Source: Leptospiraceae bacterium
GTDB lineage: Bacteria; Spirochaetota; Leptospiria; Leptospirales; Leptonemataceae
Length of the DNA stretch: 64,000 nt
Reading direction: 5' to 3'
Assembly: GCA_040217195.1 (NCBI GenBank)
Contig: JAVJNR010000010.1
Span: 17,964-81,963, forward strand
Below are positions 2,495 to 60,376 of this stretch, piece after piece (the stretch's first letter is position 1; every line of letters begins with the position of its first letter). Made by a program: the position numbers and the translations under genes. A model generated the notes under the pieces. It made no database searches and had not been told where the DNA came from. It worked only from the letters and a program-made list of their open reading frames with translations.

Positions 2495-2496
2495 TG

Positions 2497-15807: not shown

Positions 15808-16467
15808 CTATGGTCCAACCTGCATGGGCTTCGAAGCCGGGCCAGGGAACGATGCCTTCAGGTGCCCATGCTTGGAAGCTGGCATTTCTTCCGGAGTACC
15901 TTTCTTCCAGGTGACTTCGCCGGTCACATCCAGGTCGCCCTCGATGCGCACCTTGTCCGTTTTGATTGTGATTTCATCGCTGGAGAAATCGATCTTGAAG
16001 ACCGTTTCCGTTCCCTTCTTGATTACATACTCTTCATCCTTGTAGCGGACACTCCAGCCGGAAGGATGAAAGTCCGCAAAGTCTTCGCTGTCTCCGGCTT
16101 CGACGAAGCTACCGGACTCGGGCGTTTTCTCGAATTGCTCCAGATCCTTAGAATGCTTCTCCTGTCCAGGAGTAGGATACCAGTTCACGACCACCGGGTT
16201 TTCAGGGGAACCGCCTACGAAATCGATAAGGACTCTCTGGCCCTCCCGGAACTCTGCCAGTCGGCCCTTTGCCTCTGCGTCTATGACCGATCCCCCCGGG
16301 AGTAATACGTTCTCCAGGTAGTCTCCTGTCAGCGTCTGGACATTGCACCGGAATCGACTCTTCACTTTATCAATGTATCCCCAGAGCGCCGGTGCTCCCC
16401 GGCGGGTCAGTGGAGCGGCGAGCGCCTTGAGGCCGATTCCGATGGGCCTTTCGTCAATCATGCCCAT
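15808..16467 (-). CDS. Baseplate central spike (gpV/gp45-like)
   Basis: OB-like GQRVLIDFVGGSPENPVVV; beta-helix end VRIEGDLDVTGEV; KHGH tip motif. Confidence 0.75.
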   Translation of the reverse strand: MGMIDERPIGIGLKALAAPLTRRGAPALWGYIDKVKSRFRCNVQTLTGDYLENVLLPGGSVIDAEAKGRLAEFREGQRVLIDFVGGSPENPVVVNWYPTPGQEKHSKDLEQFEKTPESGSFVEAGDSEDFADFHPSGWSVRYKDEEYVIKKGTETVFKIDFSSDEITIKTDKVRIEGDLDVTGEVTWKKGTPEEMPASKHGHLKASFPGPASKPMQVGP

Positions 16468-23934: not shown

Positions 23935-24801
23935 ATGGAATTTACCCATCCCTGCCATATTATCAAAGCCGAAGAGAATTCCGGACGGCTGAAAGTTCTG
24001 ATTCGAGCCTCCACTGAAGGAGAAGACCGGCACGGCGAGCGTGTCCTAAAGAGCGCGTTTGCAGACCCGGATATGCAACGGTCTTTTTCCAGGGAAGGCT
24101 ACTACGACTACAACCACATAACAGATATTCTGGACAAACAGATGAAAGGTGTCTCCGGCACCGAACTTGTGGAACTGCAGAAGGCCAAAGCAAGGGCGAT
24201 CATTGGATATCCCGATCCCGAGAAGTCGTTGTTCGTCGGGGATGATGGCGTTTATTCCCAGGGGTATCTATTCGCAGACAATGAATACGTCCAGGAAATC
24301 CGCAAGGGTCTTGAATCCGGCTGGTCCGGCTGGGGGGCTTCGATCTCTGGTTTTGCGAGCCCGAGGGACCTGGAAGGCAACACTTTCAAGAAGATGCTCC
24401 TGAAAAAGATCGCAATCGCCCCGCTCCAGGAAGTCATCAATCCGGATACAAGTGTTCAACTGGCCAAGTCCAAACTCGTTCAATTGCTCAAGGGTGGTGA
24501 GGACTACTACACCGAAGAACAGACGGGCGCAACCGACACCTTGCCCGATACAGAAATCCGTGACCAGATAATTCAGGATCTACAGATTCAGGTCGGTCGG
24601 CTCACGCGATTGGTCCTTTCGCAACCATCGATGCAGGAAGCTATCGCTCGAGAAGTGGTGGATGCGATCAAATGCGGCACCCTGCCCCTGCAACACGATC
24701 CCATAGTCAGCTTTTTGACCGATAGCTTTGGCTTTGATACGGATTTAGCCAAGCAAGTCGCAAACGGCGTACTGCTAACAGGTAACTTCGGAGCGGCATA
24801 G
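23935..24801 (+). CDS. Prohead maturation protease
   Basis: ASTEGEDRHGERV, YDYNH, GASISG, IAIAP..VINPDT; precedes scaffold and capsid genes. Confidence 0.8.
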   Translation: MEFTHPCHIIKAEENSGRLKVLIRASTEGEDRHGERVLKSAFADPDMQRSFSREGYYDYNHITDILDKQMKGVSGTELVELQKAKARAIIGYPDPEKSLFVGDDGVYSQGYLFADNEYVQEIRKGLESGWSGWGASISGFASPRDLEGNTFKKMLLKKIAIAPLQEVINPDTSVQLAKSKLVQLLKGGEDYYTEEQTGATDTLPDTEIRDQIIQDLQIQVGRLTRLVLSQPSMQEAIAREVVDAIKCGTLPLQHDPIVSFLTDSFGFDTDLAKQVANGVLLTGNFGAA

Positions 24802-24837: not shown

Positions 24838-25524
24838 ATGAAATGGGCAGAAGAATTAATTAGCAAGATTCAATCATTAAACGTTCGCAAAGCGGATGAT
24901 CCGACCTCCGGCGATAAAGGCGGCGGGTCCATCGAGGACCTGGCAATGCAGGCCGCAAACAAAATGGAAAACGGCGAAATTGAACCGGATGCAGATTCCG
25001 TTAAGGACTTCCTGGTATCTAACGGTGTCGACGAATCTGAGGCCGGAGATTTTGCCAAAGATATCATAGATGCCTATTTCTCCGAGGATGATCCGAAATC
25101 CGGCGAAGGCGACGGGTCCGGGGACAAAGGAGACGTCAACAAGTCAAAGGATCCGACCCAGGATGAAGCCAATTCGGACCAGATCCCCATTCAGAAGTCC
25201 ATGGAGCGAATCGAAGAGGCCCTGAGTGTTCTCGGCTATGGCCTTACTCATATCCTGGACGAGCTGCAGGCAACCCGCAAGGAGAATGCTGTCCTGAAAA
25301 GCCAGGTGGATGAATACCTCGGCAAGCCAGTTCGCAAGAGTACGGTTGAGCAAGTGGCCCCAGGTGCTGGCCAGGAGAGCGGCAGATCCACCTCCGAAAC
25401 AAAGACCCTGATTCTGAAAGGAGTCCAGGCCGGTGAGCTTACCACTGAAGACATGACTGCCTTCGAAGTGGGCCGAGTGCTCACCGACAAAGCAAAGCAA
25501 TACATCAATAAGGCAGGAGCCTGA
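24838..25524 (+). CDS. Capsid scaffold protein
   Basis: Acidic/coiled; between protease and MCP; many xxK[S/A/G] sites. Confidence 0.7.
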   Translation: MKWAEELISKIQSLNVRKADDPTSGDKGGGSIEDLAMQAANKMENGEIEPDADSVKDFLVSNGVDESEAGDFAKDIIDAYFSEDDPKSGEGDGSGDKGDVNKSKDPTQDEANSDQIPIQKSMERIEEALSVLGYGLTHILDELQATRKENAVLKSQVDEYLGKPVRKSTVEQVAPGAGQESGRSTSETKTLILKGVQAGELTTEDMTAFEVGRVLTDKAKQYINKAGA

Positions 25525-25556: not shown

Positions 25557-26978
25557 ATGAGAGAACTTAACGAACTACTGGAGATTAAGAAGGCCTTTGA
25601 GGCCAATCCGGGGATTACTGATGTGGCCGAGCTCTTTGACGGCCCGGCGCTCAGTATGCAATACATCGATGGAACCATGTCCTCCATCGTTGCAAGCGAT
25701 GTTGACTTCGCTTTCCTGAACAAGCTACCGAAACGATCGGTGGACCAGACCATTGCCGAATACAACAAAATGAAAAGCCACGGAGACTCTCCGTATCGCA
25801 CTTCTTTCGTTGGGCAATCAGAGGATCCCCACTTCGCTGACGCATACCTGAAAAGAAAGTTCGATGAAATGGCGTATCTTTCGGAAGGGTTCACATACAA
25901 CCGCGTAATTGCCCGAACCAGGAACACAAACGACCCGGAAATGGTATCGTCCACGTCCGCCATGCGCCGGATGCTCACTTCCCTGTCCCGGGGCCTCTGG
26001 AATGGTGACCGTGACGCCCTTTCGGTTGAAATGGACGGAATCGTTAAGAAAGTTTCCTCCCTGGGCTCGGACTTCGTTTACGATTGTCGTGGCCAACTAC
26101 CCGGTGCCGACGTAATCCAGCATTTTGCAGCTCAGATCCGAAGTAGATATTTCGGACTGGCCAACGAATTCCACATGGCCGTCGGTTCCAAAAACCTGTT
26201 TGATCAGGCAGACCTCGGTGATAAGCAGTATATTTTCCTGGATGGCCAGAATACCGGTGCAGGTCTGTATGCCAGCCGAGTTGTGGAGGGCCAGAAGGCT
26301 TCCTTCGCACTGAACAACAAGATTCAGTATGTACCGGATCTCTGGATCGATGAAAGCAATTTCGGCGTTCCAATGGACTATGACCGGTCCACCGACTCCG
26401 TGGTCGAAAAGGCCGTAGGTGAAGCTCCTCCGGATACCCCTGCTCTGGCGGTCGCTGCTCAGGCTCCGTCCGTACCCGGCTCCAAATGGGAGGCTGGAGA
26501 CGTTGGCACCGTAGCATACCGTGTGGCCGCTGTAGGCCCTAAAGGTGCTTCTCAGGCCACAACCTCACAATCCGCCACAGTAGCCGCAAATGGAGCCGTG
26601 GAACTGACCATCACTCCGGCTGCAGGAGGCAACTTCGCAGAGGCATTCCTGATCTTCCGTGAGACAGCTCCTGGCAACGGAGATTTCCGCAAGATTGCCC
26701 GTGTAAAGCGTGCAACCAGCGGTGACACTACCTTTGTGGACGTAAATGAGACGATCCCCGGAACCAGCGTCGGTGTCCTGGGCGACTTCAATAGCCGGTC
26801 CACTTCCGACGAAACCAGAACCATGGTTCTGAGTGAGCTTATGAGCCCGCTCAAAACCACCTTCCCTCCGGGAGTTGGCGGCCTGCGACTGAACGTTGGC
26901 ATGGTGGAGTATTTCACAACCATCCAGCTCTTCGCCGAAGAGAAGTTCGTCGTATTCAAGAACATGCCAGTTATCTAA
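25557..26978 (+). CDS. Major capsid protein
   Basis: 473 aa; IKKAF propeptide-like site; GPALSMQYIDGTM; LWNGD...MDGIVK; followed by terminator. Confidence 0.85.
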   Translation: MRELNELLEIKKAFEANPGITDVAELFDGPALSMQYIDGTMSSIVASDVDFAFLNKLPKRSVDQTIAEYNKMKSHGDSPYRTSFVGQSEDPHFADAYLKRKFDEMAYLSEGFTYNRVIARTRNTNDPEMVSSTSAMRRMLTSLSRGLWNGDRDALSVEMDGIVKKVSSLGSDFVYDCRGQLPGADVIQHFAAQIRSRYFGLANEFHMAVGSKNLFDQADLGDKQYIFLDGQNTGAGLYASRVVEGQKASFALNNKIQYVPDLWIDESNFGVPMDYDRSTDSVVEKAVGEAPPDTPALAVAAQAPSVPGSKWEAGDVGTVAYRVAAVGPKGASQATTSQSATVAANGAVELTITPAAGGNFAEAFLIFRETAPGNGDFRKIARVKRATSGDTTFVDVNETIPGTSVGVLGDFNSRSTSDETRTMVLSELMSPLKTTFPPGVGGLRLNVGMVEYFTTIQLFAEEKFVVFKNMPVI

Positions 26979-28554: not shown

Positions 28555-31500
28555 ATGCGTCGGAAATTCCTGCAAGTGTTGAAAGAACGGATGGGGGCTG
28601 CCATGGCAGGCCCCCGCTCCAGAGCGCACCTCATTCGCAAGGTCATCACAAACCGGCGGGGCCACAAGCAAACAGTATACGTCAGGCCAGACAAGGCCGG
28701 AAGCCCACCTTCTGCCACTCGAAAACCATCACAGTCTTCATCCTCTGTCGCGGAGGCTCGAAAGGAGTTTCAAAGAGCCGATGCAGAATTCAGTGCAGCG
28801 CTGGAAGAGGCCTATGGCAAGCAAGCGGGAGACAAGCGGTATTCTCCGGGTCCCCATCCACCTGCAGTAGAGGCTGCAAAGAAGAAACGGATGGAGGCCC
28901 AGAAGAAGTGGCATGCGGCACAAGACCAGGCTCGGGCTTCAGGAAAGGATCCTCTATCCGGGGCACCTGTTGAATCCGAGCAGTCAGAAGCCTCAAACAA
29001 AGAGAAGCCGGCGCCGAGTGATGGAGAGGGCAAGACAGCTTCCGATCCCCCGCCAACCGTCCTCTCCTTCGTTGGTCATGATCAGATCCGGGAGCTGTCT
29101 CAGTACACAGACAAGCGCAACTACGATAGAAAGACTATCGATGGCATCAAGGCCAGCATCTTGCGGAATGGTTACAATCCGGCCTTTCCTCTCCAGGTCG
29201 ATACAGACAACGGAACCTACAATATCGTTTCGGGGCACCACCGATTCACAGCGGTAAAGGAACTGGTCAGCGAAGGGAAACTACCGGACAACTTTCAGAT
29301 TCCCGTCATCGTAAAGCAGTATGGAAGCAAAGGCGACCGACTAATGGCGCAAATGTCGGAGAATGTTCGCCGCACTGTCAATCCATTGGATGAGGCCCGG
29401 GCCATCGGAGAGCTAACCGAGATGGGCCACAGTGTTTCAGAAATCGCAGAAAAGACCGGAATGAATCCGGGAACTGTCCGGCGACGCAAAGCATTGACCG
29501 GGCTGCACAGTGACCTTCAAAAGCTGATCGAGAAAAAGGACCGAAGTCTGCCCGTAGGTATCGCGGAAGCGATCGGAACTCATGGCCTGAATCCAGACGG
29601 GTCTAAAAACGCAACCATCCAGAACAAGGCCCACCGATTCTACAATGCCAACCGACATCGTGGATTCGGAGCTGCTGAAGTGATTAGCTACATGCAGGAG
29701 CTCAAGTCGCAGAACTCCGATCAAATGTGGTCCGTAGATGAAACCCGTACGGAAGCCGAGAAGCAGGCCGTCCAGAGCCTCGGTTCAGAAGAAAAGGCAA
29801 AGCGGAACACAGCGCAAATAGACAAGTTCCTGGATAACGTACAGAATTCGTTTCAGCGCCTTCTCGGGGACTCTATTGGCTCTCTAAACGAGTCCACTCT
29901 CAAAGAACTCTCCAACAGCCTCCTGGCCACGGAAGGCGAGTCCGGGTTTCGCTCAAAAATGGATCAGCTATCGACACTGATGAACGACCTGGAGACAGTC
30001 AAGCGTACTCTCGAGCAGAATTTCAATAAGATCAAAGAGGAATCATCGAACCATAGTCTCGCATTCGCCCGATCAATGGCAGTGATTGAAGCCAGCCAGG
30101 ACGCCATTCATGTTCTAAAGTCGGTCCATCGAGAGACAGGGGTAATCGATAAAACCAGATTTCTGGAAGTCCTCAAGGCCAAAGCCAAAGGCAAATCGGC
30201 GAGGAATCGCGCTCACCTCGTGCGCAAGGTAATAACCAACAAGAAGGGTCACAAACAGACAGTATACGTGAATCCCGATGAAACCAACCAGGCTCAGGCG
30301 GAACAAATCGGGGAGTTCACTCTGAAACGCAGAGGGAAATTCATCGATGTCCTCGGGAATCTCTTCAAAGAATCCGGCCTGTACATGGCCTTGAATTCTC
30401 TAACCGGCAAGAAGGGGAAGCCTATCGAAGGAGAAAACGATCAGGGTAGCATTGGTGCTACTTACCCTTACTCAGTCGCTAACTATAAAAAGATCCGGGA
30501 GCAGTTGCTGGGAGTTTCCAGGGGGCCTGCCGACAACCGAGAGCAGGATTTGAGCCCTGCGGATGTCAGGAATATACCGGATGAGATAGAGTCGGAAGTC
30601 AAGGGAGATAAAGCACGATCCCTCTGGAAGCGGGCGTCCGAGCGATTCCCGAACCTGGATGCCGGAACTTTTGTGGATCATCTGGTTGAGTATTTGCTCC
30701 ACCGTGACAAATACGAAGACCTTTTTTCGCAACATAGCCTCTTCCAGGAGCCATCGGAAACTCCGGCGAACTCTGCAAAGGACTCGGGCTCGAAAGGAAC
30801 GGTTAGCACTCCGAACCCAGCACCGTTCCGGAAAGATTTGCTTCGCTTCATCCATGAGCAATGGTCCGAATCGATCCAGAGCGATCCTCGTTCAATAGAG
30901 AAGGCTGAAGCAAGGTATAATGCAGCAGAACGGGACCTTGAAGAGTCCGCCCGGGAAGCCTACGGGAATCGTTCCAGCGACATGCTGGAATACGCAAACT
31001 CCAGGGTGCATCCTCCAGAAGTTCAGGAAGACCTGGATCAACGCAACGAAGCTCGGGTCTCTCTCCTGGAAACAAGGAAGGAGTCTCAGATTCGAGAATC
31101 CCGCATAAGGGCAAGCGTCGAAACAGGTAAAGCACGGGTCGGCGTTAAGACTCAGCATGCAATCAATGAAGAGGTCCGACAGATCCTGAAATCTGTGCCA
31201 CCGGAAAAGATGACCGAGGAGCAGAAGGAACTCCTTCGTCAGTACGAAGGCTGGGGCGGGCAGACCCGAAATGATAAAACGGATTACTCCGGCAAGGGAC
31301 TTCTTTATGAGTTCTATACTCCTGAGAAGGTCGTAAACAAGTCCTGGGAGCTATTGAAGAGATATATCCCCAAAGGGAGCAAGATTCTCGAACCCGCTGC
31401 CGGGACCGGACGATTCGCAGAGGGACGATCAGACTACAGTTTCGACATGCTGGAGGTAGACGGCACATCAAGCCAGATTGCCGGTATTCTGCACCCGGAT

Positions 31501-34500
31501 GCAAATGTCCGGAAGGGTCAATTCGAAGAGCTGTTCCTGGATAATCGGAACCGATCCAAGAAGCAATACGATGGTCCTCTGTACGATGCCGTGGTAACGA
31601 ACCCGCCCTACGGCGAAATGGGAGGAAAATACAAGGCATCCGAAGGTCGAGGCTGGCAGCGCTATGAGGAATACTTCCTCCATCGCTCCCTCGACACCGT
31701 GAAGGAAGGCGGCATAGTTGCCATGGTCGTTCCTTCCAATTTTCTCCGAAAGGGGAAAACCAAAGCAAAGGAGAAGATATTCAACAAAGCAGAACTCCTG
31801 GAAGCCCACCGATTGCCGAATGGCGCTTTTGCCCATACGGACATCGGCACGGATCTGATCATACTTAGAAAGAATACTACAGCGCACAAAGACAATGCGA
31901 TTGCCTTCGGGGATGAATACTTCAAGCGGAACCCGAATCATCTTCACGGAGAAGAGTTTGAGACGACAGATCGCTGGGGCAAGCCAGACCTGCGGACAAA
32001 GGGCAATATAGATACCTTTCTGAATCATAGACCGGCGGCCCCGAAGGAAATGTCAAAAGCCCACAAGGATGCAATCTCCAGGGGATTGATCGGAAACCAG
32101 AACGCAAAGGGGAAGCACAAGGTAGCCAGTTCAAACCGGAAGACGGTTAAGAAGAAAGCCGTCCGAAATGCGACGAGAAAAACGAAGAACACGGCGAGAG
32201 AAAAGCAGAGTCCTCCCCCGAAGCTCCTGAATCAGGCGGAGTTCAACAAGAAATACGGGCTGAACTTCAGCGAGTCGGATGTCGAATTGCTGAAAAGCAC
32301 CAATGCTCTCGGATACATTGACCCCGAGACGCCATTCGATCCGAAGTCGATGTCATTCCACAATGGCGGTGCAATGCCCGACTACCTGTATGCCACTGGC
32401 GATATCTATGAGAAATTGAATCAGCTGGAATCGGACAGAGAAGAGATCATCGAGAAAGGTGGCCTGCAGCTATACCAGAAGCAGCGCCAGATGCTGGAAG
32501 AAGCCATTCCGGAGCAAACCCCGCTGAAGGACGTCGTTCTGGATCCAATCGACCCTTTCTTCAAGACAGTCACCCTGGAAGACGGAAGTTCCCTTCTCGA
32601 CCGGTTCAAGGAATGGGTCGGTGATCTGGACTACGAGACCTTTATGGACTACGCGGCCTCAGCCAGCGACGTTCGGGCCTACTGTGATGCCATACCTGTC
32701 CGGGGCAACAACAAGAGCCTGAATGAGAGGATCCGGCGAGAACGCCGGGAATTGGCAATGAAGCTGGCAGACAGGTTCGTCAAGGAATCCCTGGGTGAGG
32801 CCGAGCAGAGTCAGATCCAGCAGGCCTGGAATGAACGCTTCAACGCCTACGTTCAGGTGGATCCGGCGAAGGTGCCGATTCCGATTGAGGGATTGAATGA
32901 AAAGTTCAAGGGTAAAGACTATGAATTGAGGGATGTCCAGCATCGATTCATTGCAAATTTCCTTTCAAAAGGAATCGGTTGCGCAGCCCACGAGGTGGGG
33001 CTGGGCAAGACCATGACCGGCATTATTGCCACAGTCTCCAATATGCAAATGGGACGGTCGAAGAGGCCTCTGTTCGTGGTCCCAACCTCAGTATTACCCA
33101 ATTGGGAGGCCTCCGTTAAATCGCTTTATCCAAATCTCACGGTGAATACAATCGGCACCCCCGAACTGAATCAAATGACCGAAGGCGGCAAGAAACTCGA
33201 GATCGAAGAAGGGTCGGTGACTGTAATGTCTTACGATGCGTTCCAGAGGATGGGCTTCAGCGAAGAGCGATTCAATGAACTCACAAAAGACCTCCAGGAT
33301 GCTCACAAGCCCTATGCAGAAGAACCGGCCACCAAGCGAGGGAAGGCAAAGAAAGAGGAGGAATATGAAGCCCTGGCATCGAGAGCGAGAACGGGTACGT
33401 ATAATGAAATACTATTCGACGAAGCGGGCTTTGACTCTCTGACCGTGGACGAAGCGCACAACTTCAACAATATCTTTGCTGACGTAAAACAGGAGAAGGA
33501 TCAAGACACCGGGAAGGTCAAGACCCAGGCAAATGAATTCTCCGGTATCATTGGAGGGGCGACGAGCGACCGCGGGCTAAAAATGTGGCTGGCAGCCCAG
33601 CACGTGCTCAAGTCCAACGACAACCGCAATGTGATGATGCTCACAGCCACTCCCTTTACGAACAATCCGCTTCAGGTCTACTCCCTACTCTCCACGATGG
33701 CCAGGGAACGCCTCCAGAAGATGGGGATCTACAACGTAAAGGATTTCGTGGCGGCCTTTGTAGAGACTCAGACCGAAAAGGTACTGGAGCCCAACGGAAA
33801 AATCAAAGAGAAACAGACGGTCCGCCGTTTCAAGAATGCCCATGCCTTTGCCTCGCTAATCAATGAATTCTTCGATCGAAAGACCGGAGAGGATGCGCAT
33901 ATCAAGCGGCCGGACCTGGTAGAGAAGGAGATCGTTCTTCCTTCTAACAGGGAAATGGATCAGATCCGCCAGAGCCTGGAGAACTATTACGATATGGCTT
34001 TCCACCCCGATCCCGATGAGCGAGATCCCTCCGCTGCACTAAGGTCCATGACCATGCAGCAAAACCTGAATATCAGTCCGGCCCTCGTAAACGACTATCA
34101 ATTCAACGATAACCGACAGGATTTCGTCGAACGCAGTCCCAAAATGAAATTTGTGGCCAAATCCGCTGCAGAATACTACAAACGGATGAAGGAAGCCCAG
34201 GGGAATGCTCCGGGCCAGATCATCTTTCTACCCCGAGGGGTTGAGTATTTCAATGAAGTGAAGGCTTACATGGTTTCCCAGGGAATCCCGGAGGATGCCA
34301 TCGAGATCATGACTCCCAAGGAGAAAGGGAAAAAGGCCAGGAGCAAGGAAGCAAAGGCGAAGGGGCAAAGTCGATTCGAAGAAATCAAGTTCGACTTCAA
34401 TGATCCGAATGGCAAAACGAAAATCATAATTGGCTCCGATACGATCCAGGAAGGAGTATCCCTCCAGAAAAATACGGGGGTCATGTATAACTGCAGCCTG

Positions 34501-35337
34501 GCATGGAATCCGACCTCGAACGAACAAAAAAAGGGCCGTGGATGGCGCCAGGGGAACACCCAGGAGCGTTGCCACATGTTCTACCCGGTCATGGAGAACT
34601 CCATCGACACAAAGCTGTACCAGAAGCATGCCGAAAAGGTTTCCCGAATCAACGATATCTTTAAGGCAACTGGATCCCCTTTCATCGAAACCACGGACAT
34701 CAATCCTGATGAGCTGAAATACGAGATCGTGACCGACCCGGAGAAAAAGGCCAGGCTGGTTGCATCGGAAGATGAGACGCAGCGTCTGGCCGCCATCAAG
34801 GATAAGACCACCGACCGGAACATTCTCCTATCAACCCTGAATCGAGCAGAAAATCTGGACCGACGCATTAGGGATGCGGACGAGTCACTGAAGCGGTCGC
34901 AGCGCTGGGCCGAAATGTACGGCAAGAACTCGACCCTTGGCCGCTTCCACGCGGAGGATGTAAACCGCATCAGATCCAGACTCAGTCGATTGAAGCGCGA
35001 CAAAGAAGAGCATGAGACAATGATGCAGCAGAAAGGCCTGACCGTGGAGAAGCTCCGTTCTCAAGCGGAGGCTCTGGAAAAAGAGATCGCTCAAATGAAA
35101 GCAGATTCAACCAAAAAGAAGGAAGAGCTTGAATCAGAACTGGTAGAGCGCTACCGACGAGAAAAAGAAGAGTATGAGAAGAGCCGTCCAAACAAATCCA
35201 TCGACCAGATGGTAGATGAGCATGTCTCAAAGCTGGTTGACTCTTCCCTCGGGAAGTCGGTATACAAGAGCCGAATATACAGGTTGATTCGTGAAGGAAG
35301 AACACATGAACGCAGACATCAAGCAGCAGCTCTTTGA
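28555..35337 (+). CDS. DarB-like polyvalent protein: ParB domain + N6-adenine MTase + SNF2 helicase
   Basis: IVSGHHRF/ENVRR..NPLDEA (ParB); EFYTP, ILEPAAGTGRF, NPPY (MTase); HEVGLGKT, VDEAHNF, LTATP, EGVSLQ, GRGWRQGN (SF2). Confidence 0.9.
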   Translation: MRRKFLQVLKERMGAAMAGPRSRAHLIRKVITNRRGHKQTVYVRPDKAGSPPSATRKPSQSSSSVAEARKEFQRADAEFSAALEEAYGKQAGDKRYSPGPHPPAVEAAKKKRMEAQKKWHAAQDQARASGKDPLSGAPVESEQSEASNKEKPAPSDGEGKTASDPPPTVLSFVGHDQIRELSQYTDKRNYDRKTIDGIKASILRNGYNPAFPLQVDTDNGTYNIVSGHHRFTAVKELVSEGKLPDNFQIPVIVKQYGSKGDRLMAQMSENVRRTVNPLDEARAIGELTEMGHSVSEIAEKTGMNPGTVRRRKALTGLHSDLQKLIEKKDRSLPVGIAEAIGTHGLNPDGSKNATIQNKAHRFYNANRHRGFGAAEVISYMQELKSQNSDQMWSVDETRTEAEKQAVQSLGSEEKAKRNTAQIDKFLDNVQNSFQRLLGDSIGSLNESTLKELSNSLLATEGESGFRSKMDQLSTLMNDLETVKRTLEQNFNKIKEESSNHSLAFARSMAVIEASQDAIHVLKSVHRETGVIDKTRFLEVLKAKAKGKSARNRAHLVRKVITNKKGHKQTVYVNPDETNQAQAEQIGEFTLKRRGKFIDVLGNLFKESGLYMALNSLTGKKGKPIEGENDQGSIGATYPYSVANYKKIREQLLGVSRGPADNREQDLSPADVRNIPDEIESEVKGDKARSLWKRASERFPNLDAGTFVDHLVEYLLHRDKYEDLFSQHSLFQEPSETPANSAKDSGSKGTVSTPNPAPFRKDLLRFIHEQWSESIQSDPRSIEKAEARYNAAERDLEESAREAYGNRSSDMLEYANSRVHPPEVQEDLDQRNEARVSLLETRKESQIRESRIRASVETGKARVGVKTQHAINEEVRQILKSVPPEKMTEEQKELLRQYEGWGGQTRNDKTDYSGKGLLYEFYTPEKVVNKSWELLKRYIPKGSKILEPAAGTGRFAEGRSDYSFDMLEVDGTSSQIAGILHPDANVRKGQFEELFLDNRNRSKKQYDGPLYDAVVTNPPYGEMGGKYKASEGRGWQRYEEYFLHRSLDTVKEGGIVAMVVPSNFLRKGKTKAKEKIFNKAELLEAHRLPNGAFAHTDIGTDLIILRKNTTAHKDNAIAFGDEYFKRNPNHLHGEEFETTDRWGKPDLRTKGNIDTFLNHRPAAPKEMSKAHKDAISRGLIGNQNAKGKHKVASSNRKTVKKKAVRNATRKTKNTAREKQSPPPKLLNQAEFNKKYGLNFSESDVELLKSTNALGYIDPETPFDPKSMSFHNGGAMPDYLYATGDIYEKLNQLESDREEIIEKGGLQLYQKQRQMLEEAIPEQTPLKDVVLDPIDPFFKTVTLEDGSSLLDRFKEWVGDLDYETFMDYAASASDVRAYCDAIPVRGNNKSLNERIRRERRELAMKLADRFVKESLGEAEQSQIQQAWNERFNAYVQVDPAKVPIPIEGLNEKFKGKDYELRDVQHRFIANFLSKGIGCAAHEVGLGKTMTGIIATVSNMQMGRSKRPLFVVPTSVLPNWEASVKSLYPNLTVNTIGTPELNQMTEGGKKLEIEEGSVTVMSYDAFQRMGFSEERFNELTKDLQDAHKPYAEEPATKRGKAKKEEEYEALASRARTGTYNEILFDEAGFDSLTVDEAHNFNNIFADVKQEKDQDTGKVKTQANEFSGIIGGATSDRGLKMWLAAQHVLKSNDNRNVMMLTATPFTNNPLQVYSLLSTMARERLQKMGIYNVKDFVAAFVETQTEKVLEPNGKIKEKQTVRRFKNAHAFASLINEFFDRKTGEDAHIKRPDLVEKEIVLPSNREMDQIRQSLENYYDMAFHPDPDERDPSAALRSMTMQQNLNISPALVNDYQFNDNRQDFVERSPKMKFVAKSAAEYYKRMKEAQGNAPGQIIFLPRGVEYFNEVKAYMVSQGIPEDAIEIMTPKEKGKKARSKEAKAKGQSRFEEIKFDFNDPNGKTKIIIGSDTIQEGVSLQKNTGVMYNCSLAWNPTSNEQKKGRGWRQGNTQERCHMFYPVMENSIDTKLYQKHAEKVSRINDIFKATGSPFIETTDINPDELKYEIVTDPEKKARLVASEDETQRLAAIKDKTTDRNILLSTLNRAENLDRRIRDADESLKRSQRWAEMYGKNSTLGRFHAEDVNRIRSRLSRLKRDKEEHETMMQQKGLTVEKLRSQAEALEKEIAQMKADSTKKKEELESELVERYRREKEEYEKSRPNKSIDQMVDEHVSKLVDSSLGKSVYKSRIYRLIREGRTHERRHQAAAL

Positions 35338-35512
35338 AGCAGTGCAGGTTGATTTCCCACACCTGGCGAGTCTGGGGCCGGATAGGGTCTACGATTCCCT
35401 ATCCGCAATTTGTATGCAGGAGGGGAAGCCAGTAACGGTTGAACAAATGCTCCAATACGCAGTGATTCTGGACAACGACCTGGAGATGGACGATCTACAG
35501 ACCGGAGACTGA
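35306..35512 (+). CDS. Small acidic protein overlapping the end of the DarB-like gene
   Basis: GAAGGA RBS before ATG 35306; MNADIKQQLFEAVQ... Confidence 0.6.
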   Translation: MNADIKQQLFEAVQVDFPHLASLGPDRVYDSLSAICMQEGKPVTVEQMLQYAVILDNDLEMDDLQTGD

Positions 35513-35524
35513 ATCGACAGATGC

Positions 35525-35549
35525 CCGATAGCCGTTTTCCGGCTATAAC
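35525..35549 (+). promoter_or_regulatory. Putative late promoter CCGA-N15-TATAAC
   Basis: TGCCCGATAG, 31 nt before ATG 35556. Confidence 0.75.
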
Positions 35550-35555
35550 GGGTCC

Positions 35556-36974
35556 ATGAATGGCATTCATATTCTCAAGGCGGCCAACAGAGCCCATCTG
35601 GTCCGCAAAGTCATTACGAATAAGAAAGGCCGCCGCCAGACCGTTTACGTAAACCCGGAACAAGAAAAGTCGAAAGAAAAAGGTCGAGGCCAGTCTGGTA
35701 AGGCATCCGAAAAAAAGACCGGTGACAAGGAAGCCGGATCTTCCCGCCCCAACCAGTCTACCCATAACAAAGAATCTCAACCCAGGAACAACGCGCCCGA
35801 GAAGAGCGGACAGAATAAAGAGGGCACCCGGAAGAAACCGAAAGAACGTAAGTACAAAGACCCGGGGGTTAATCAGATATGGGCTCCTGCCGATGTTGAG
35901 GCAGCCAAGGCCCAGGCATTCTACAACATTGTAACCGACCCGGACATAGGTGATCCGATACCCCGCCCGGGTCGCTGGAATGAGGGGATTCCGGAGGGGA
36001 TGCCCTCCGAAACCTGGGAAGAGCACTTCACCGGCCATCCAGATGAAGGTGGAGAGCCTAAAGAAAGTCGTGAGTTTCTTCACAAAGTAATCAAGCAGAG
36101 ATTTCTTGAAGGGAAACCTTCTGTGCCGTCCGGTGAGAAACCGGTTGCAATAATGATGATGGGTGGCCCGGCATCCGGCAAGTCGACCATGGTTAAGTCC
36201 GCTGGCCTGGGTAGTATGGAGGATTTCGTTGTCGCCGATGCTGACGCAGTGAAGAACATGATTCCGGAATATCGCGTCGGTGTGAACAACCGATTGAAGC
36301 AGGCTGCATCAATGGCACATGAGGAATCCAGCTATCTGGTGAAGCAGATCCGGGAAGAGGCGATCAATGCCCGGAAGAATCTGGTTATTGATGGTACCGG
36401 CTCAAAGACCGCTTCCTACGAAAAGAACATCAAGAAGCTTCGGGACCAGGGATACGAAATCCAACTGATGATGGCAGATACCCCGATGGATGTGGCCCTG
36501 GATCGAGCCAAGCAACGTGCAAGAAAAACCGGCAGATATGTTCCGGATGATGTGCTCAAAGATGCCTATGCAGGGATTCCGAACGGGTTCCAGAAGATCG
36601 CAGAGATGGTTGATTCTGCAGCCATCTATGATACAAACGTGAAGCTGGGAGAGCCTTCACGGCTTGTCTATACAAAGACGAATGCCGCTGAAACCATCCA
36701 TGACTCCGAGCACTATTCGAAGTTCCAGAGTAGGATCGGAAAGTCCTGGCTGTTTCAGATCATCAAGTCCAGACTCTCCCGTGAACAACGAATTGCTGTA
36801 ACGAAGGGAGGAGAAGATATGCAGGAGAAGAAGCAAAAGCGAACCGATGACGAGCTACTACAGGCAATGGCCCGCGACGAATGGGACTTCACCGAAGAAG
36901 AAATGAAACGAATTGAGGCCATGGAAGACGTGGCGGACGAAGGGGAAGGAGTGGAAATGGTAGTGGATGACTGA
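35556..36974 (+). CDS. Zeta-toxin-family P-loop kinase with N-terminal shared motif and acidic C-terminal tail
   Basis: MMMGGPASGKST, DADAVKNMIPEY, AHEESS, NLVIDGT, RARKTGRYVP. Confidence 0.88.
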   Translation: MNGIHILKAANRAHLVRKVITNKKGRRQTVYVNPEQEKSKEKGRGQSGKASEKKTGDKEAGSSRPNQSTHNKESQPRNNAPEKSGQNKEGTRKKPKERKYKDPGVNQIWAPADVEAAKAQAFYNIVTDPDIGDPIPRPGRWNEGIPEGMPSETWEEHFTGHPDEGGEPKESREFLHKVIKQRFLEGKPSVPSGEKPVAIMMMGGPASGKSTMVKSAGLGSMEDFVVADADAVKNMIPEYRVGVNNRLKQAASMAHEESSYLVKQIREEAINARKNLVIDGTGSKTASYEKNIKKLRDQGYEIQLMMADTPMDVALDRAKQRARKTGRYVPDDVLKDAYAGIPNGFQKIAEMVDSAAIYDTNVKLGEPSRLVYTKTNAAETIHDSEHYSKFQSRIGKSWLFQIIKSRLSREQRIAVTKGGEDMQEKKQKRTDDELLQAMARDEWDFTEEEMKRIEAMEDVADEGEGVEMVVDD

Positions 36975-37024
36975 ACCCACTGCCATGGATTTATCCGCTT
37001 GAATGATGGAATAGGTTATCCGAC

Positions 37025-38476
37025 ATGTTTGGTCTTGAAAGCCTTATTAACATACTGAAAGCTCGCGGCGCAGCTCTTGGTGAGATCCACCATTGGGCCA
37101 ATGGCGATTATATGAAAACTCCGCAGGGCTGGAAGGAAGTCAAGAAAGACGTCCGGAAGCATCTGGACAAGCTCACAAAACGTATGGCTCCCGCAGACGA
37201 GAAGGCCCGCGAACACCGCTTCGCCATGGAGGACCTGAAGTCCAGGATTGACGGGATCAAGAGCAAACTCAGCGAGCACCCCGATTCAGATTACTACAAA
37301 AATGAGCTCAAAGAGGCGGAGAAGCGGCTGATTTTCCACAGCGTAAAAGCGGAACAGGTTGGAGGACGTGCCCGGCGCCGGGCCGAGGACTACCTGGATA
37401 AGGTTCGCGAGTACCTGAAAGACCATCACGAAACTCACATAAACGCCAAGTATGCCGATGCACTGAGAACGTTGGATGAACGGATGGCTTCACTTGAAGA
37501 AGGTGGGGATCGTCACAATGAAATAATGGAAAAGCATCGAAAGCTGGTAGGCTCTGAATACGAGGATGAGGACGATGCTGAGTCAGCAGCAGAAGATGAG
37601 ATAGAGATCGAAAGGGAGACGATAGAGGAGAAGCAAACAGACCTTCACGACCTGATCTGGGAGAAGGTTGGAAACCGCCATGACCAGATCGATGACCGGT
37701 TGGACAAACTGTTGGAGGACAGTGCAGACGACACGCGGGAAGCGTTTGAAATGCGCCTGGATGACTTCGAGGAAATCAAAGCCCGCTATCCAACCAGCGT
37801 AGACCGGGATCCGGATACTCCGATGAGCAAGGTAAGGGAGAGAATCCGGAAGAATCTCGGTTTTCGCAAAAGGCTGGCCGACAGACTGAACCTGAAATCC
37901 AATCTGGGCCGAATGCTCGCAGTATTCAAAGCCGGAAACCGGCAGGGTCTTGTGAAGAAGGTCATAACCAATCAGGCAGGCCACCGGCAGACGGTCTGGG
38001 TTCGGCCGGACGAAAGCCCCGGCCCTCGCCCCGTAAAAAAGGATAGTGGCCCATCCTCCAAAAAACCCGGTGCAGGCTCAGTAAAGCGCACAATGGCGCC
38101 CCAGCGCGGCGGAATGCCGTCCAAGAAGCCCATGGCGGCAAAACCGCCCGAAGATCATGTTGTTGTCCAGCAGCGGCATGAGGATTTTGAGAAACGAGCA
38201 CGGGAGCAGCGAAAACGCAAAGGACCCAATGCAAGCGTGGAGTCAGCCGATGCTGGCGATATAGTGCAGATTACCAACCCGAAATCCAGAGTACGCAACC
38301 AGATAGGGAAAGTGGTTCAGAAACTGGAGGACGGATTGAAGGTAATGATGGCCAACGGGATTTTCCAGGACTTCACTTTCGATGAACTGGCCTTCGCGAA
38401 GTCCCGGCCGCTCGGATTTCGACCGGATGGACTGCAGATCCTAAAAGCCCGTATCGAAACCCGATCCGAGAATTGA
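37025..38476 (+). CDS. Putative internal head protein (acidic coiled coil, shared motif, KOW-like C-terminus)
   Basis: LKARGAALGEIHHWANGDYMKTPQGW; RQGLVKKVITNQAGHRQTVWVRPD; GDIVQI...IGKVV. Confidence 0.75.
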   Translation: MFGLESLINILKARGAALGEIHHWANGDYMKTPQGWKEVKKDVRKHLDKLTKRMAPADEKAREHRFAMEDLKSRIDGIKSKLSEHPDSDYYKNELKEAEKRLIFHSVKAEQVGGRARRRAEDYLDKVREYLKDHHETHINAKYADALRTLDERMASLEEGGDRHNEIMEKHRKLVGSEYEDEDDAESAAEDEIEIERETIEEKQTDLHDLIWEKVGNRHDQIDDRLDKLLEDSADDTREAFEMRLDDFEEIKARYPTSVDRDPDTPMSKVRERIRKNLGFRKRLADRLNLKSNLGRMLAVFKAGNRQGLVKKVITNQAGHRQTVWVRPDESPGPRPVKKDSGPSSKKPGAGSVKRTMAPQRGGMPSKKPMAAKPPEDHVVVQQRHEDFEKRAREQRKRKGPNASVESADAGDIVQITNPKSRVRNQIGKVVQKLEDGLKVMMANGIFQDFTFDELAFAKSRPLGFRPDGLQILKARIETRSEN

Positions 38477-44373: not shown

Positions 44374-46098
44374 CTATCCCAGAAAATCTGCCAGACCATC
44401 ACCCACGTCCTTGATAGTTTCCGTCAGCTTATCCATTCCTTTAATGGCACCATCTATGCTCTTAAACAGTGTTCCTTGAATTTCCTGAATCCCCTTAGCA
44501 ATGGGTTCCAAATTGCCGTCCATCGACTCCATGATTTTCAGAAGTTGCTTTTGAGAGTCATGGGCGATCTGCATTGCTCTTTTGGCCGTATCACTCCTCT
44601 CATAGGCCATATCAGTTTCATTTTTCAGCTTCAAAGGACTTAAACTATGGGTTTTAATGGAAGCGCTCCCTGCGGGCCGCCTCTTTGAAAAATCGACGTT
44701 CGCACCCTCCCCTACAGAGGTCGTGATCTGGGAGTTCCGCATCAACATGCCCCAGGAAAAATCATTTGCTGCGAAGTTACGCCGCTTGAAATTCTGAAGA
44801 ATCTTCCGGTTTTGGTCATTACCGATACCCTGCTCAGCCTGCCGGTATGCTTCAAGGGGGTCCATTCCGGATGCCAGAAGCCTCGAGAGAACGAGGGAGC
44901 CCAAGGGTCCACCCTTATCTGCAGCTCGAACGGACTTGTCGACCGCCTTAGCAATTTCCAATCCTCTACTTGCTGTGCTTCCATTCCTCGACTGGGTGGA
45001 GGACATCTGGGCAGCCAGACCGAGGAAATTCTTCATCTCGGTCTTATCCATGGTGCCGTATCCCTGATCGCGCATCCCTTTGGTATGACCGGCAATCTCC
45101 TGGAGGTATTCTCCCTGGCGAAGGTTTTGTACATTAGCGGCCTTCATGTACCTCACGAACTCCATGGTCTTCATGTCCATGCCACCATAGCGAATCTTTC
45201 CCAAAGCGCTGGCTGCCTCCGAGGCTCCCATCCCCTGGGACGCTGCGAATTTCAGTATGTCATCATCACCGGTACCCTTATTGGAAACCTTGTATCCTCT
45301 TCGCATTCCCGATTGTTTCAGAAATTCAAGGTTGGCCATACCTACTTCCGGATGGTTAAAAAGGCCTCCGCTATAATGAGTAAATCCTATCGCACGATAA
45401 GACTGCTGCTGGGACATCAATACATTGGAGTATTTCTCGCCCATGGCCGAAATGGCCTTCATCAAGGCACCGGCTATTGCGAAAACAATGCCAATATAAG
45501 GGGCCGCTTTCCCCATCCCGGACATGGTTCCGCCAGGATTGCCCGGTCCCCCGGAACCTGTCCCAGAGCCACTGCCAGACCCGCTTCCGCCAAGCCCTCG
45601 GGCATTTCGAAAGACGGCGTTCTGAACAAATAACCGCTGGATGGGCTTGTTCTTCTTGTCGTTTTTTTCGCCAAAGAGGCGGCCGAACATACCGCCTCCG
45701 GCGTTCGCTGCACTCTGCAGGGCATCGGTGCCACCACCGCCGCCTTCCGATTCCCCTCCCCTGTTGTCCTTGTCTTTGTCCCGGCGGAACATGTCCCGGG
45801 TACGCTTCAGCGCATCGATCTTGTCTTTTGCGGCATTGTAGAATCCACCTCTAAGGAACTCTTCTTCGCCGGACTGCGCCTGCTGGGCGGCCTGCTGTGC
45901 ATTCTGATAGACTTCCCGCTTTTTTTGCTCTTGCCGCTTCTCCTCCATGCGGCGGCGCTGCACAGCGGCATAGGATTGAGGCCCTGCCTGGCCGGCGTCG
46001 ACTGCCGTCTTAATGGGTTGACCGGCCTGCTTTCGGAACTTCTCGACCTGCTGCCTGGCCTGTCTATCGTCCAGGTCGAGTTTTACATTGATAGGCAT
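44374..46098 (-). CDS. Tape measure protein (574 aa, inverted relative to tail operon)
   Basis: MPINVKLDLDD start after late promoter; Ala/Gly/Met-rich helical with a hydrophobic segment. Confidence 0.7.
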   Translation of the reverse strand: MPINVKLDLDDRQARQQVEKFRKQAGQPIKTAVDAGQAGPQSYAAVQRRRMEEKRQEQKKREVYQNAQQAAQQAQSGEEEFLRGGFYNAAKDKIDALKRTRDMFRRDKDKDNRGGESEGGGGGTDALQSAANAGGGMFGRLFGEKNDKKNKPIQRLFVQNAVFRNARGLGGSGSGSGSGTGSGGPGNPGGTMSGMGKAAPYIGIVFAIAGALMKAISAMGEKYSNVLMSQQQSYRAIGFTHYSGGLFNHPEVGMANLEFLKQSGMRRGYKVSNKGTGDDDILKFAASQGMGASEAASALGKIRYGGMDMKTMEFVRYMKAANVQNLRQGEYLQEIAGHTKGMRDQGYGTMDKTEMKNFLGLAAQMSSTQSRNGSTASRGLEIAKAVDKSVRAADKGGPLGSLVLSRLLASGMDPLEAYRQAEQGIGNDQNRKILQNFKRRNFAANDFSWGMLMRNSQITTSVGEGANVDFSKRRPAGSASIKTHSLSPLKLKNETDMAYERSDTAKRAMQIAHDSQKQLLKIMESMDGNLEPIAKGIQEIQGTLFKSIDGAIKGMDKLTETIKDVGDGLADFLG

Positions 46099-46103
46099 AC
46101 CTG

Positions 46104-46128
46104 ATCCTATTGGTGGATCAAACTTCGG
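46104..46128 (-). promoter_or_regulatory. Putative late promoter CCGA-N15-TAGGAT
   Basis: 30 nt before ATG 46098. Confidence 0.7.
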
Positions 46129-46139
46129 TCCAGCCTTGT

Positions 46140-46164
46140 CCGATAGCCCTCTTCCAGGGATACT
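46140..46164 (+). promoter_or_regulatory. Putative late promoter CCGA-N15-GATACT
   Basis: 31 nt before ATG 46171. Confidence 0.7.
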
Positions 46165-46170
46165 CCAGCC

Positions 46171-46557
46171 ATGGAAACACACCGCATTATTGTGGAGACT
46201 CTGGCCCGCAGCGAATCGCAGAAAGAACGTTCTATTCTCCCGAAGATCGAGCTGGAGGCCCAGACTCAGGAACCACAGCACCTTACCTACTGGATCAATG
46301 ACCAGGATAACCTGGTAAACATCCCGATCATTCCTTCCACGCTAAACTACCTGATTATCCGAGCCACCTATACCCAGGATGATACGCAAGCTGGAGTCCA
46401 GGCCGGTGACCTTGCGCCTTTCCACGTCCGGGTGGATGGCGACACCCAGGATCGGGCGCGCAAAGGCCTGTATGTTCTGACTGGAGATGTGACGAGTCTG
46501 GAAGTCGGCACCCCTGTAACCAACGGCAAAGTTGAACTCAAAGTACTGATGGGCTAA
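46171..46557 (+). CDS. Virion structural hypothetical protein
   Basis: Late promoter; beta-rich. Confidence 0.65.
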   Translation: METHRIIVETLARSESQKERSILPKIELEAQTQEPQHLTYWINDQDNLVNIPIIPSTLNYLIIRATYTQDDTQAGVQAGDLAPFHVRVDGDTQDRARKGLYVLTGDVTSLEVGTPVTNGKVELKVLMG

Positions 46558-49928: not shown

Positions 49929-51560
49929 TCAGCCCCAGTCCCCTTCCGGGGCATTCTCTTCCTTGGAAGGGTCATAGTCCTCGAAATCGAATTCCTGTTG
50001 CTCCGAGGCTTCTGGCGGCATCCCCATGTCGCCCTCTGCGCCACCGGCAAGATTCTGCACAAGCTGAGCTCCAGACTGACTCCAGTTTGTATCCAGGACA
50101 AAGGCTCCGGCGTACTTCACCTGCTCGAAGTCTTCATCGGACAGGTCATAGATTTTTCGGAGCGCCTCCCCGACTGTCGGCATATCCCTTCGGCTCCGAA
50201 CTTCATCCATCAACTCTATGGACTTAACCAGTTTCTCGTCCCTTTCGAGCCGCTTATCTTCATCTTCCTTCTCAACTCCATTGAAGACGAAAACCAGTGG
50301 TTCGTACCTGTCCACAGTCTCCATTATATCGTTGCATACGTCTGCAAAATAGGATAGCATCGACTTCTTTGCCCTGGTCATTGCGGCATCTATCCGCCCA
50401 TCCATGGACCCTTCAGACAGTCCCTGGCTACCCATCAAACGCAGGCCGAGCTCCGCTTGGTCCATTCCATGGGCGGCCAGGGTAAAGGTCGTGACCCATT
50501 GCATCAGCTTTTCGAATGCCATGTCGCTCAGGGTATTGAGGTTGGTGAACTTGAGGTCCTGGGCCTCGGACGTAATCAAGGGGATCCGGTGATTGTTATT
50601 GTTTCCCGAAAACATGTTCTCCCATTGCACCTGGAGATCATCCAGTACTTCCTGGGGCATGTTTCCGGGAAGGTAGAGGAATCCGGGAGGCGGATTGTTC
50701 GAGAACCGATCGCGGTTGAACTTCAAGGCATTCATAGTGGCGATGATTTCCATTACGGAGACCTCCGCTGGAGACAACCCCGAGTTTCGGTACCGAACAT
50801 CGCTAAGTTCATTCTGGTGCCGCACAATGATCTCTTCATCTGTGAAGGTTTCGACCACTGTATTGTTCACGATCTGCACCCAGCGGATCCGTGGGTCATT
50901 CTTGTATCCGGACTCAGTTGTGGGGTAGATAGTTGCGGGGTCCAGATATTTGACTTCGACAACCTGACCCCTCCGATTACGGACCAGGTAGAAGGCCACA
51001 CTGTCGATGGCTAAAGTATCCCGGATCATGAACTGGAAGACGGCATGAAACCGATCCCGGTTCTGCCAGCCCTCCACCTTATCGCCCATGAACTCGAAGA
51101 ATTTTCTGGCATCCCGGATAAGCTCCTTGTCCCCATCCCCCGGGGATTTGTCCGGATCTTGCAGGTCGAAGTCGAACCCCTCCTTTTCTCGGAATGGCCG
51201 ACCGAATTGACCCAGGTCATCAATTCGAACCTTGTGGATGGCACCGACCAGAGTATTTGAATAGGATAGTTTCCGGAGGTCATTGAAAGAGGGGCGGTCA
51301 GGATTGCGGAGCCGGATTCCCTGGTTGATCAGGCTTTGCTCTTCGGATGTAAAGACCGGTTTTCTCTCTTCTTGTTCTCTCGATTGGACACCGTGGAACA
51401 TGGACTTCGCCAGGGCGTACATCCTTGAGTCCTTGAATTCTCGGATATCCTCCCGGGCACGCTGGGCCTGGGACTGTCGATTCCGGGCTGCCCGGAGTCT
51501 CTTCTGGAGGTTCTTTTCGTAGTTCGGGCCTCTGGGTCGACCGGGCTTTCCGTTTGCCAT
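49929..51560 (-). CDS. Portal protein
   Basis: DTLAID, YLDPATI, GLSPAE, FSNNPPPGFL, DMAFEK, GMDQAELG, DEVRSRRDMP. Confidence 0.9.
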   Translation of the reverse strand: MANGKPGRPRGPNYEKNLQKRLRAARNRQSQAQRAREDIREFKDSRMYALAKSMFHGVQSREQEERKPVFTSEEQSLINQGIRLRNPDRPSFNDLRKLSYSNTLVGAIHKVRIDDLGQFGRPFREKEGFDFDLQDPDKSPGDGDKELIRDARKFFEFMGDKVEGWQNRDRFHAVFQFMIRDTLAIDSVAFYLVRNRRGQVVEVKYLDPATIYPTTESGYKNDPRIRWVQIVNNTVVETFTDEEIIVRHQNELSDVRYRNSGLSPAEVSVMEIIATMNALKFNRDRFSNNPPPGFLYLPGNMPQEVLDDLQVQWENMFSGNNNNHRIPLITSEAQDLKFTNLNTLSDMAFEKLMQWVTTFTLAAHGMDQAELGLRLMGSQGLSEGSMDGRIDAAMTRAKKSMLSYFADVCNDIMETVDRYEPLVFVFNGVEKEDEDKRLERDEKLVKSIELMDEVRSRRDMPTVGEALRKIYDLSDEDFEQVKYAGAFVLDTNWSQSGAQLVQNLAGGAEGDMGMPPEASEQQEFDFEDYDPSKEENAPEGDWG

Positions 51561-55199: not shown

Positions 55200-55245
55200 G
55201 AACCACTGAAAGCGCGAATGCGCTGTAGGTGGTGTTTCTTTATTT
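55200..55245 (+). ncRNA. Putative small structured RNA associated with DUF3800 gene
   Basis: ACCACU-GAA-AGCGC-GAAU-GCGCU-GUA-GGUGGU hairpin with GAA/GUA loop-E-type internal loop, then U-rich tail. Confidence 0.6.
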
Positions 55246-60348: not shown

Positions 60349-60376
60349 AGATAGTCAATCTTTAAAGGAGGAAACA

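Follow-up and report, generated by a model that had tools for sequence, protein, structure and literature searches.

A short basic peptide recurring on candidate head-cargo modules of an LE1-like phage-plasmid from a Leptospiraceae bacterium

The DNA analysed here is a stretch of 64,000 nucleotides from a Leptospiraceae bacterium (GenBank assembly GCA_040217195.1, contig JAVJNR010000010.1, positions 17,964 to 81,963 of the forward strand), referred to below as the window. It belongs to a phage-plasmid in which a 24-residue basic peptide, tag A, recurs on proteins that we regard as candidate cargo of the phage head; the letters A to D for tags are labels of this analysis. The window is part of contig C9 of the source genome (G000), which is 81,963 bases long, has a terminal overlap of 141 bases and a G+C content of 53.1%, against 48-49% in the other nine contigs. 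Scans with Pfam and PHROG profiles found a head module, a contractile tail and ParA/ParB in the window. The capsid protein is 32-41% identical to those of LE1-like Leptospira phages and 22-27% identical to those of SPO1-like, Thermus and Pseudomonas phages (from the 40 listed of 71 records), and near-identical loci were found in metagenome-assembled genomes titled Spirochaetaceae or Leptonemataceae. The element is a circular LE1-like phage-plasmid. Its candidate cargo genes stand 3' of the capsid genes, among the virion genes of a portal-terminase phage (the terminase-like gene on C9 was recognized by eye).

Tagged proteins of the phage-plasmid

Tag A occurs four times on the + strand, at 28621..28692, 30208..30279, 35589..35660 and 37940..38011 (copies 1 to 4). 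All four peptides translate at the positions given in the initial annotation of this DNA, two of them in an open reading frame (ORF) of 2260 amino acids, one in a Zeta-like ORF of 472 and one in an ORF of 483. A hidden Markov model (HMM) of the four copies, searched against six frames of the 4.6-Mb genome, found just those four at 66-71 bits; the next match scored 11.8. Three of the copies start 3-10 residues after the words VLK/A (541), ILK/A (8) and VFK/A (302), as had been noticed at the outset (numbers are residues, and the slash marks the predicted cut). Pairwise amino-acid identity among the copies is 62-88%. The statement that their DNA differs mostly at synonymous sites holds when codons are counted, since 71 of the 110 differing codons in the six copy pairs are synonymous, but not when bases are counted (75 of 159 differing bases fall in synonymous codons). 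Where paired codons encode the same residue, the DNA differs in 71 of 105. A DNA-level repeat or recent duplication was rejected on this codon-level comparison. Among three or four close relatives the tag is 98-100% conserved and the next 60 residues 83-99%.

The largest tagged protein, a predicted polyprotein of 2260 residues (28555..35337, +; ORF, Pfam, PHROG and word scan), consists of a leader, copy 1, a ParB-like module, a joint with VLK/S and VLK/A, copy 2, an N6-adenine methyltransferase (MTase) with an SNF2 helicase, and a tail after LGK/S. Its ParB-like domain (29110..29541, +; residues 186-329, GHHRF at 227) matches PHROG 1033 at E 1e-20. The two likely cut words VLK/S (522) and VLK/A (541), found by word scan at 30112..30180 (+), lie between the ParB and MTase-helicase modules, which are separate genes in LE1. 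The MTase (residues 919-1120, NPPY) and SNF2/helicase (1456-2000) regions form a DarB-like dyad at 31309..34554 (+), matched by Pfam and by the DarB-like PHROG 10089 (E 1.4e-67), with the motifs present. Several unrelated effector domains (MTase-SF2, ParB) stand in one chain here, as is characteristic of polyvalent proteins. The leader before copy 1 (28555-28620) is conserved in relatives though Glu or Asp follows the Lys, so that a proper P1' residue is missing. In one relative (L019:8348-15130) a break in the same frame region follows codon 328 of the 2260-residue gene.

The Zeta/PezT-like kinase (35556..36974, +; PF06414 E 6.8e-33, PezT E 5.9e-6) has an ILK/A leader, copy 3, a P-loop kinase domain homologous to PezT (the Zeta domain, residues 182-359) and cut words at 396, 404 and 417. 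Behind these three words lies an acidic C-terminal tail of 55 residues (36798-36974, net charge -14), which could be a built-in inhibitor that is taken off in the head. Upstream of the kinase, an acidic ORF of 73 amino acids (35291..35512, +) overlaps the 3' end of the 2260-residue gene and has no Pfam family match. It is 59% identical in a relative, G001, whose locus is without a Zeta gene there; as the ORF is kept in that relative, a role as a simple Zeta antitoxin (epsilon/PezA) seems unlikely.

By word scan and motif comparison the 483-residue protein (37025..38476, +) has two modules. The first consists of ILK/A, a different motif (tag C, 37079..37132, +) and a helical module, and the second of VFK/A, copy 4 and a small barrel-like module ending in FAK/S. 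Residues 303-459 occur as a stand-alone gene in two relatives (LalZ and G049); residues 13-302 had no usable match in the ESM Atlas. The ParB-like, N6-MTase, SNF2/helicase and Zeta domains called in the initial annotation were all recovered by the profile scans.

Predicted cut words and head protease

The word preceding most tags, [ILVF]-x-K-[ASG] with the predicted cut after Lys, is called the K-word. The narrow word patterns used here were picked after viewing the sequences, and their enrichment was tested against 2000 shuffles. Upstream of the cargo genes lies a predicted prohead protease of the assemblin/gp21 fold (23935..24801, +; PHROG 1028, E 6.7e-6), with K-words of its own after residue 11 and, where the domain ends, at LAK/S 178 and LLK/G 186. 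Its structural model superposes on varicella-zoster virus protease (Z 10.3) and T4 gp21 (Z 10.0) with a root-mean-square deviation of 3.0-3.2 over 120-127 residues. A Foldseek search with the model gave no match at E 0.001, and herpes proteases topped the ranking. Residues H61 and S136 are invariant in 23 homologues, one of which carries the source name XkdF-domain protein, and we infer that they form the catalytic pair. The acidic protein between the protease and capsid genes (24838..25524, +; 228 residues, net charge -19, seven K-words) is the likely scaffold.

The major capsid protein (25557..26978, +) is SPO1/Herelle-like (PHROG 752, E 3e-97) and carries IKK/A at 25584-25595. The A511 capsid protein is reportedly cut at K23/S24. 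In the window protein IKK/AF aligns with VVK/SF of PDB 5LII (463 residues), which we take to be the phage 812 protein, and the deposited sequence of the PDB 9ROW chain, at 439 residues 24 shorter than 5LII, begins with that Ser. K-words number 13 in the protease and scaffold together, where 2.2 are expected (none of 2000 shuffles reached this), and the three cargo proteins hold 25, where 12.6 are expected (1 of 2000). They stay at background in 20 non-virion proteins (16 against 14.2), in 15 tail proteins (17 against 13.6) and in the capsid protein as a whole. Because of this enrichment, the alignment of the capsid word with a mature start, the fold of the protease and the agreement of the words with module and gene borders, the K-word is likely the site of the phage's own head protease. 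The cargo proteins are likewise likely to be polyproteins split into modules at K-words, a feature that had been overlooked.

The slot behind the cut word holds other motifs as well. Tag B is common to the ParB and MTase-helicase genes of LE1, after their K/G, and tag C is also found in LE1 gp25 (twice) and in P0079. Tag D follows a K-word in a 556-residue protein outside the window (C9:13512-11770, -), whose gene lies downstream of the terminase gene and of one that by eye is MuF-like; this protein is a further cargo candidate. Tags A, C and D all occur on this contig, and A+B, A+C and A+D are mixed in P0038, P0079 and P0051. Distinct examples of tags B, C and D number 4, 5 and 2. The same slot is filled by no fewer than three unrelated basic/aromatic motifs. 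In Thermus phage Cumys, gene 43 (L059:21423-26276) encodes a 1600-residue helicase that adjoins the head protease and has LAK/A at its start, with another Gly/Trp-rich motif next to it.

Spread of tag A and other features of the element

A tag profile of 27 rows, with the K-word left out, matched 604 protein clusters at E 0.001 among 1.84 billion representative sequences. The best 150 of the 604, with 41 further matches, gave 169 distinct proteins, 163 of which hold 186 unique copies. A K-word stands 2-14 residues upstream of 119 copies (6-9 residues in 95 of them), 29 copies lie within 15 residues of Met1 and 38 have neither. Considering only the 135 internal copies, 99 have a K-word at most 14 residues upstream, against a null mean of 14.9 and maximum of 26 in 2000 runs that overstate independence because relatives are among these copies; in a downstream control the count was 1 of 135. 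The tag is always N-terminal on its module, in one copy each, and a Lys/Glu/Pro-rich stretch comes next.

Many unrelated enzymes carry the tag, as emerged from the search and domain listing that the initial annotation had suggested. Pfam scans of tag carriers (38 + 55 proteins, and 34 locus proteins) found ART-PolyVal, InPase, PBECR1/3, RadC, LPD1 and RelA/SpoT, a likeness to polyvalent proteins, together with SAM lyase, Zeta, topoisomerase IB, lysozyme, NUDIX, MTase-SNF2 and Strawberry-notch helicase; the majority of the scanned carriers are without a Pfam family. Outside the kin of the window, 19 loci, mostly drawn from a viral collection, hold 46 copies (34 after a K-word, 8 at Met, 2 after a Glu word and 2 with none). 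A virion gene (portal, terminase, capsid, protease or tail) was found in 13 of the 19 by BLAST or profile and in one by eye. Some phages hold many copies (5-6 in L008, L014 and L028). Five leaderless proteins of L008 (4135-7675 and 12933-13391) begin with Met followed by tag A, four of them between terminase and portal, and two small neighbours terminate in a partial tag-like stretch. A chromosomal housekeeping motif was rejected, as 7 of the 61 related genomes (counting G000) have the tag and, in those checked, it lies on phage-like contigs. Diverged tag A is found in the sequenced relatives LbrZ (E 0.0011) and LalZ (by eye). Searching cultured phages and plasmids with the tag by tblastn gave no match, and with a tagged mini-protein chance matches only. 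Tag A was not found in the fetched stretches (partial genomes) of Thermus phage Cumys, Pseudomonas phage Touem01 and LE1.

The 38 exceptional copies comprise 19 with a Glu word by pattern (one, P0082, judged spurious), 3 with F-A-D and 16 unclassed. Among them are fusions of the tag to portal proteins, five Glu cases behind lambda-type portals and three Phe cases behind Mu-type portals, on which the tag still scores 40-58 bits. For two portal fusions a search for their loci gave none. In nine Glu-class proteins (five with a Pfam portal match, three aligned to those and one by eye; tag-adjacent site excluded) [LF]xE[SA] occurs 23 times against 6.7 expected and K-words 9 times against 9.7, while in the three Mu-portal proteins F[AS][DE] occurs 10 times against 2.0 and K-words 5 times against 5.5. 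One locus, L035, has the tag after LTE/A on the portal and a second copy in the next, ART-bearing gene; it is the only one of 13 loci from a lambda-portal alignment search that carries the tag. Glu words are also present in the capsid and protease-like genes of L034. Capsid families co-occurring with the tag are SPO1-like (L013, L032), PF05065 (L030) and PF25209 (L035), and the tag lies beside or on three portal families. These sequence patterns suggest that the preceding word switches with the portal lineage (LxE/A, FA/D) and that the tag stays.

AlphaFold models the tag as a helical turn and a hairpin with strands at 6-11 and 17-22 (predicted local distance difference test 85.6, predicted template modelling score 0.39). 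The mean net charge over 185 copies is +5.5. Pfam scans of 27 tag copies gave two single-member matches and no family, a PDB profile search with the tag had a best E of 0.2, and the ESM Atlas held no usable match to it. In a fold search the hairpin matched one of 48,161 chains at Z 2.1, from which neither a new nor a known fold follows. No publication on the tag peptide was found in the literature searched, short motifs being hard to search for.

Other genes of the element bear on its general character. The portal protein (49929..51560, -; PF04860, PHROG 12) is without a tag in this phage. The baseplate, tape-measure-like and portal genes (15808-18347, 44374-46281 and 49929-51560) lie on the strand opposite to the remaining structural genes, and in LalZ, too, the portal and baseplate genes run against their neighbours. 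A metal-resistance-like block spans C9:1-9577, outside the window, and 58883-62315 of the window; Pfam recognizes a ZIP transporter and an outer-membrane efflux protein, and other genes, named by eye, are presumably an RND pump, a MerR-like regulator and mercuric-reductase-like genes. Two more DNA methyltransferases (C5 and D12 class), an HTH-IrrE protein and a DUF3800 gene lie at 1667-3330, 12270-13439 and 55240-56025.

Proposed role of the tag

Tag A is a real and widespread motif, undescribed in the sources searched, inside a known kind of system. Judging from sequence comparison, the tagged proteins are very probably head cargo processed by the phage protease. The initial annotation had taken them for packaged effector proteins, which their position behind the capsid genes and their polyvalent domains bear out by comparison, and had missed the xxKA words as likely cut sites. 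We propose that the cargo would be cut after [ILVF]-x-Lys and that each released module would keep the predicted hairpin as a DNA-binding handle, a reading to which we give a probability of roughly 0.45. Its early stages can be put forward with considerable confidence: precursors would enter the prohead, probably through short hydrophobic leaders ending in a K-word, through a basic hairpin gripping the acidic scaffold, or both, and, by homology, with much the same confidence, the assemblin-fold protease would then cut the capsid protein, the scaffold, itself and the cargo at K-words, releasing the ParB-like module, the MTase-helicase, the Zeta-like kinase and the two modules of the 483-residue protein. 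For the last stage the odds seem about even: once the scaffold is gone, the hairpin would bind the packaged DNA, so that the module is retained, exits with the genome and stays on the DNA in the new host.

This proposal turns on the partner of the tag. Because the tag stays on the module that the cut would release, once per module, survives on portal fusions and is indifferent to capsid type, its partner should be shared by all heads; with three capsid and three portal families, and unrelated motifs in the same slot, it is more economical to assume one universal partner than a receptor on the capsid. DNA is the simplest common partner, the acidic scaffold taking its place until packaging. The leaderless tagged proteins and the hydrophobic face of the hairpin argue for a loading role as well, and the conservation of the copy 1 leader without a proper P1' residue fits a leader that is a T4-like address.

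Several observations weigh against the proposal. Copy 1 itself has no canonical K-word upstream, 16 of the 186 copies have no word upstream and are not at Met1, and 5 of the 19 loci are without an identified virion gene. The carriers of the 29 leaderless copies have to get into a prohead that as yet holds no DNA, something that binding to DNA alone cannot account for, and the invariant Leu/Lys and alternating hydrophobic residues of the tag would equally suit a protein interface. As to the words, broad patterns over whole proteins are hardly enriched (1.15 for K), and the Glu word is somewhat raised too in the window cargo (11 against 4.3) and in the Mu fusions (8 against 3.3). The portal fusions are mutually related (31-38% identical), and the protease-like gene of L034 was not confirmed as an E-type protease (hhalign E 0.43).

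Other partners for the tag were weighed against DNA. The hairpins might pair with one another edge to edge and form an internal core, nucleated by portal-fused copies and ejected as a body; the amphipathic hairpin model, the independence of capsid and portal, the leaderless proteins, the portal fusions and the many copies in single phages would all be explained in this way, but we consider it unlikely, since single phages and even single proteins mix the unrelated tags A to D and a net charge of +5.5 opposes self-association without a polyanion. A little less likely again is the capsid-directed option of the initial annotation, which had left open whether the tag targets the capsid or DNA: here the peptide would bind the capsid protein, portal or scaffold and be the loading signal itself. 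Its fusion to many unrelated enzymes, and now also to portals, shows a portability that agrees with such an address, and the leaderless mini-proteins, some encoded between terminase and portal genes, keep the idea alive. The DNA option is nevertheless favoured, since the tag remains on the module after the predicted cut, in contrast to the T4 signal, which is cleaved off (PMC9026906, in its available part), is kept on portal fusions, which need no address, and spans unrelated capsid and portal families, and since in LE1, whose capsid protein is homologous, the orthologous modules carry a different motif.

The tag might instead act after packaging, as an export signal for the portal/tail channel or as a docking motif for a host target. 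One N-terminal copy on every released module, with a Lys/Glu/Pro-rich stretch next to it, would suit such a role, which is nonetheless improbable because the carriers differ in host groups, tails and portals and a common host target for such enzymes is hard to name. We give very little weight to a tag that is only a protease exosite, or a functionless remnant hitch-hiking on gene fusions. The tight spacing to the cut word is what one would expect of an exosite, yet K-words in the capsid protein, scaffold and protease do without a tag, and the tag persists where the word changes or is lacking; synonymous saturation between copies, and conservation among kin beyond that of the adjoining residues, speak against a remnant. 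More broadly, and rather doubtfully, tailed phages may have a two-part cargo grammar, a lineage-specific word followed by an exchangeable retained handle, in which tag A, one of a small set of handles, would move between phages whose capsids, portals and proteases are unrelated and would by itself, in passing from acidic scaffold to DNA, be enough to have any enzyme loaded, held and co-ejected.

Several known systems come close to this one. The polyvalent proteins of Iyer et al. 2017 (PMC5512222, available sections) are likewise multi-enzyme proteins in a virion-gene context, with an MTase-SF2 dyad, ParB, portal fusions and a proposed processing into units, the last assigned to built-in MPTase peptidases. 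No MPTase peptidase was matched by Pfam at E 0.01 in the window proteins, where unassigned stretches remain and module borders carry the head-protease word. The available text of that paper describes no such short retained motif, though its supplements may list such motifs. The capsid targeting sequence and gp21 of T4 (PMC9026906, available part) offer a short portable signal on unrelated internal proteins and a protease of the same fold. Unlike tag A, which follows the inferred cut and stays, the T4 sequence is an N-terminal propeptide that is removed, and the residue before the cut is Glu there and Lys here; the counterpart of the T4 sequence in this phage would be the short leader with the K-word at its end.

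In P1, according to the available part of PMC12810830, DarA-Hdf on the capsid wall loads the Dar proteins into the head, where the prohead protease partly cuts them and from which they are ejected along with the DNA; DarA-Hdf itself binds DNA through a basic face and exits with it. Like P1 with its DarA, DarB, DdrB and Hdf, the present element is a plasmid-prophage with a DarB-like MTase-helicase and a ParB module. No profile match to DarA or Hdf was found among the 78 window ORFs scanned, the scan covering the window but not the remaining 18 kb of C9; nor, unlike here, does that part of the source describe a peptide shared by the P1 proteins. In SPN3US (available part of PMC10052503) gp245 similarly cuts head and ejection proteins at a three-residue word and the propeptides are cleared, but the word is A-x-E and no common retained motif is described; most head proteins there are uncut, a caution against taking every word as a site. 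The Lys-Ser maturation of SPO1/Herelle phages (PDB 5LII, 9ROW) concerns a homologous capsid protein cut at the aligned position, within the PHROG 752 and 1028 families, but is known for the capsid protein, and its use on tagged polyproteins was not found in the literature searched. LE1 and LE1-like phage-plasmids, besides their related capsid protein, have the same K-words and the same ParB and MTase-helicase modules, which in LE1 differ in being separate genes with tags B and C. The available parts of two further sources contain, respectively, proteomes of LE3/LE4 only (PMC6078989) and no mention of a capsid cut (PMC12886913).

For phages beyond T4 and P1, a motif that marks the starts of mature cargo modules across unrelated heads makes the selection, retention and ejection of internal enzymes testable: cut positions and fragment sizes can be predicted from it, and several hundred unannotated protein clusters become candidates for injected effectors. 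It suggests, too, that polyvalent proteins of this kind are split by the head protease and not by a peptidase of their own. The cultured phage LE1 has the same words and sister tags, so the motif can be probed there, and Thermus phage Cumys is a cultured phage in which the pairing of cut word and handle could be tested. If the two-part grammar is true, head cargo would be predictable from sequence and the tag would offer a capsid-independent loading tool.

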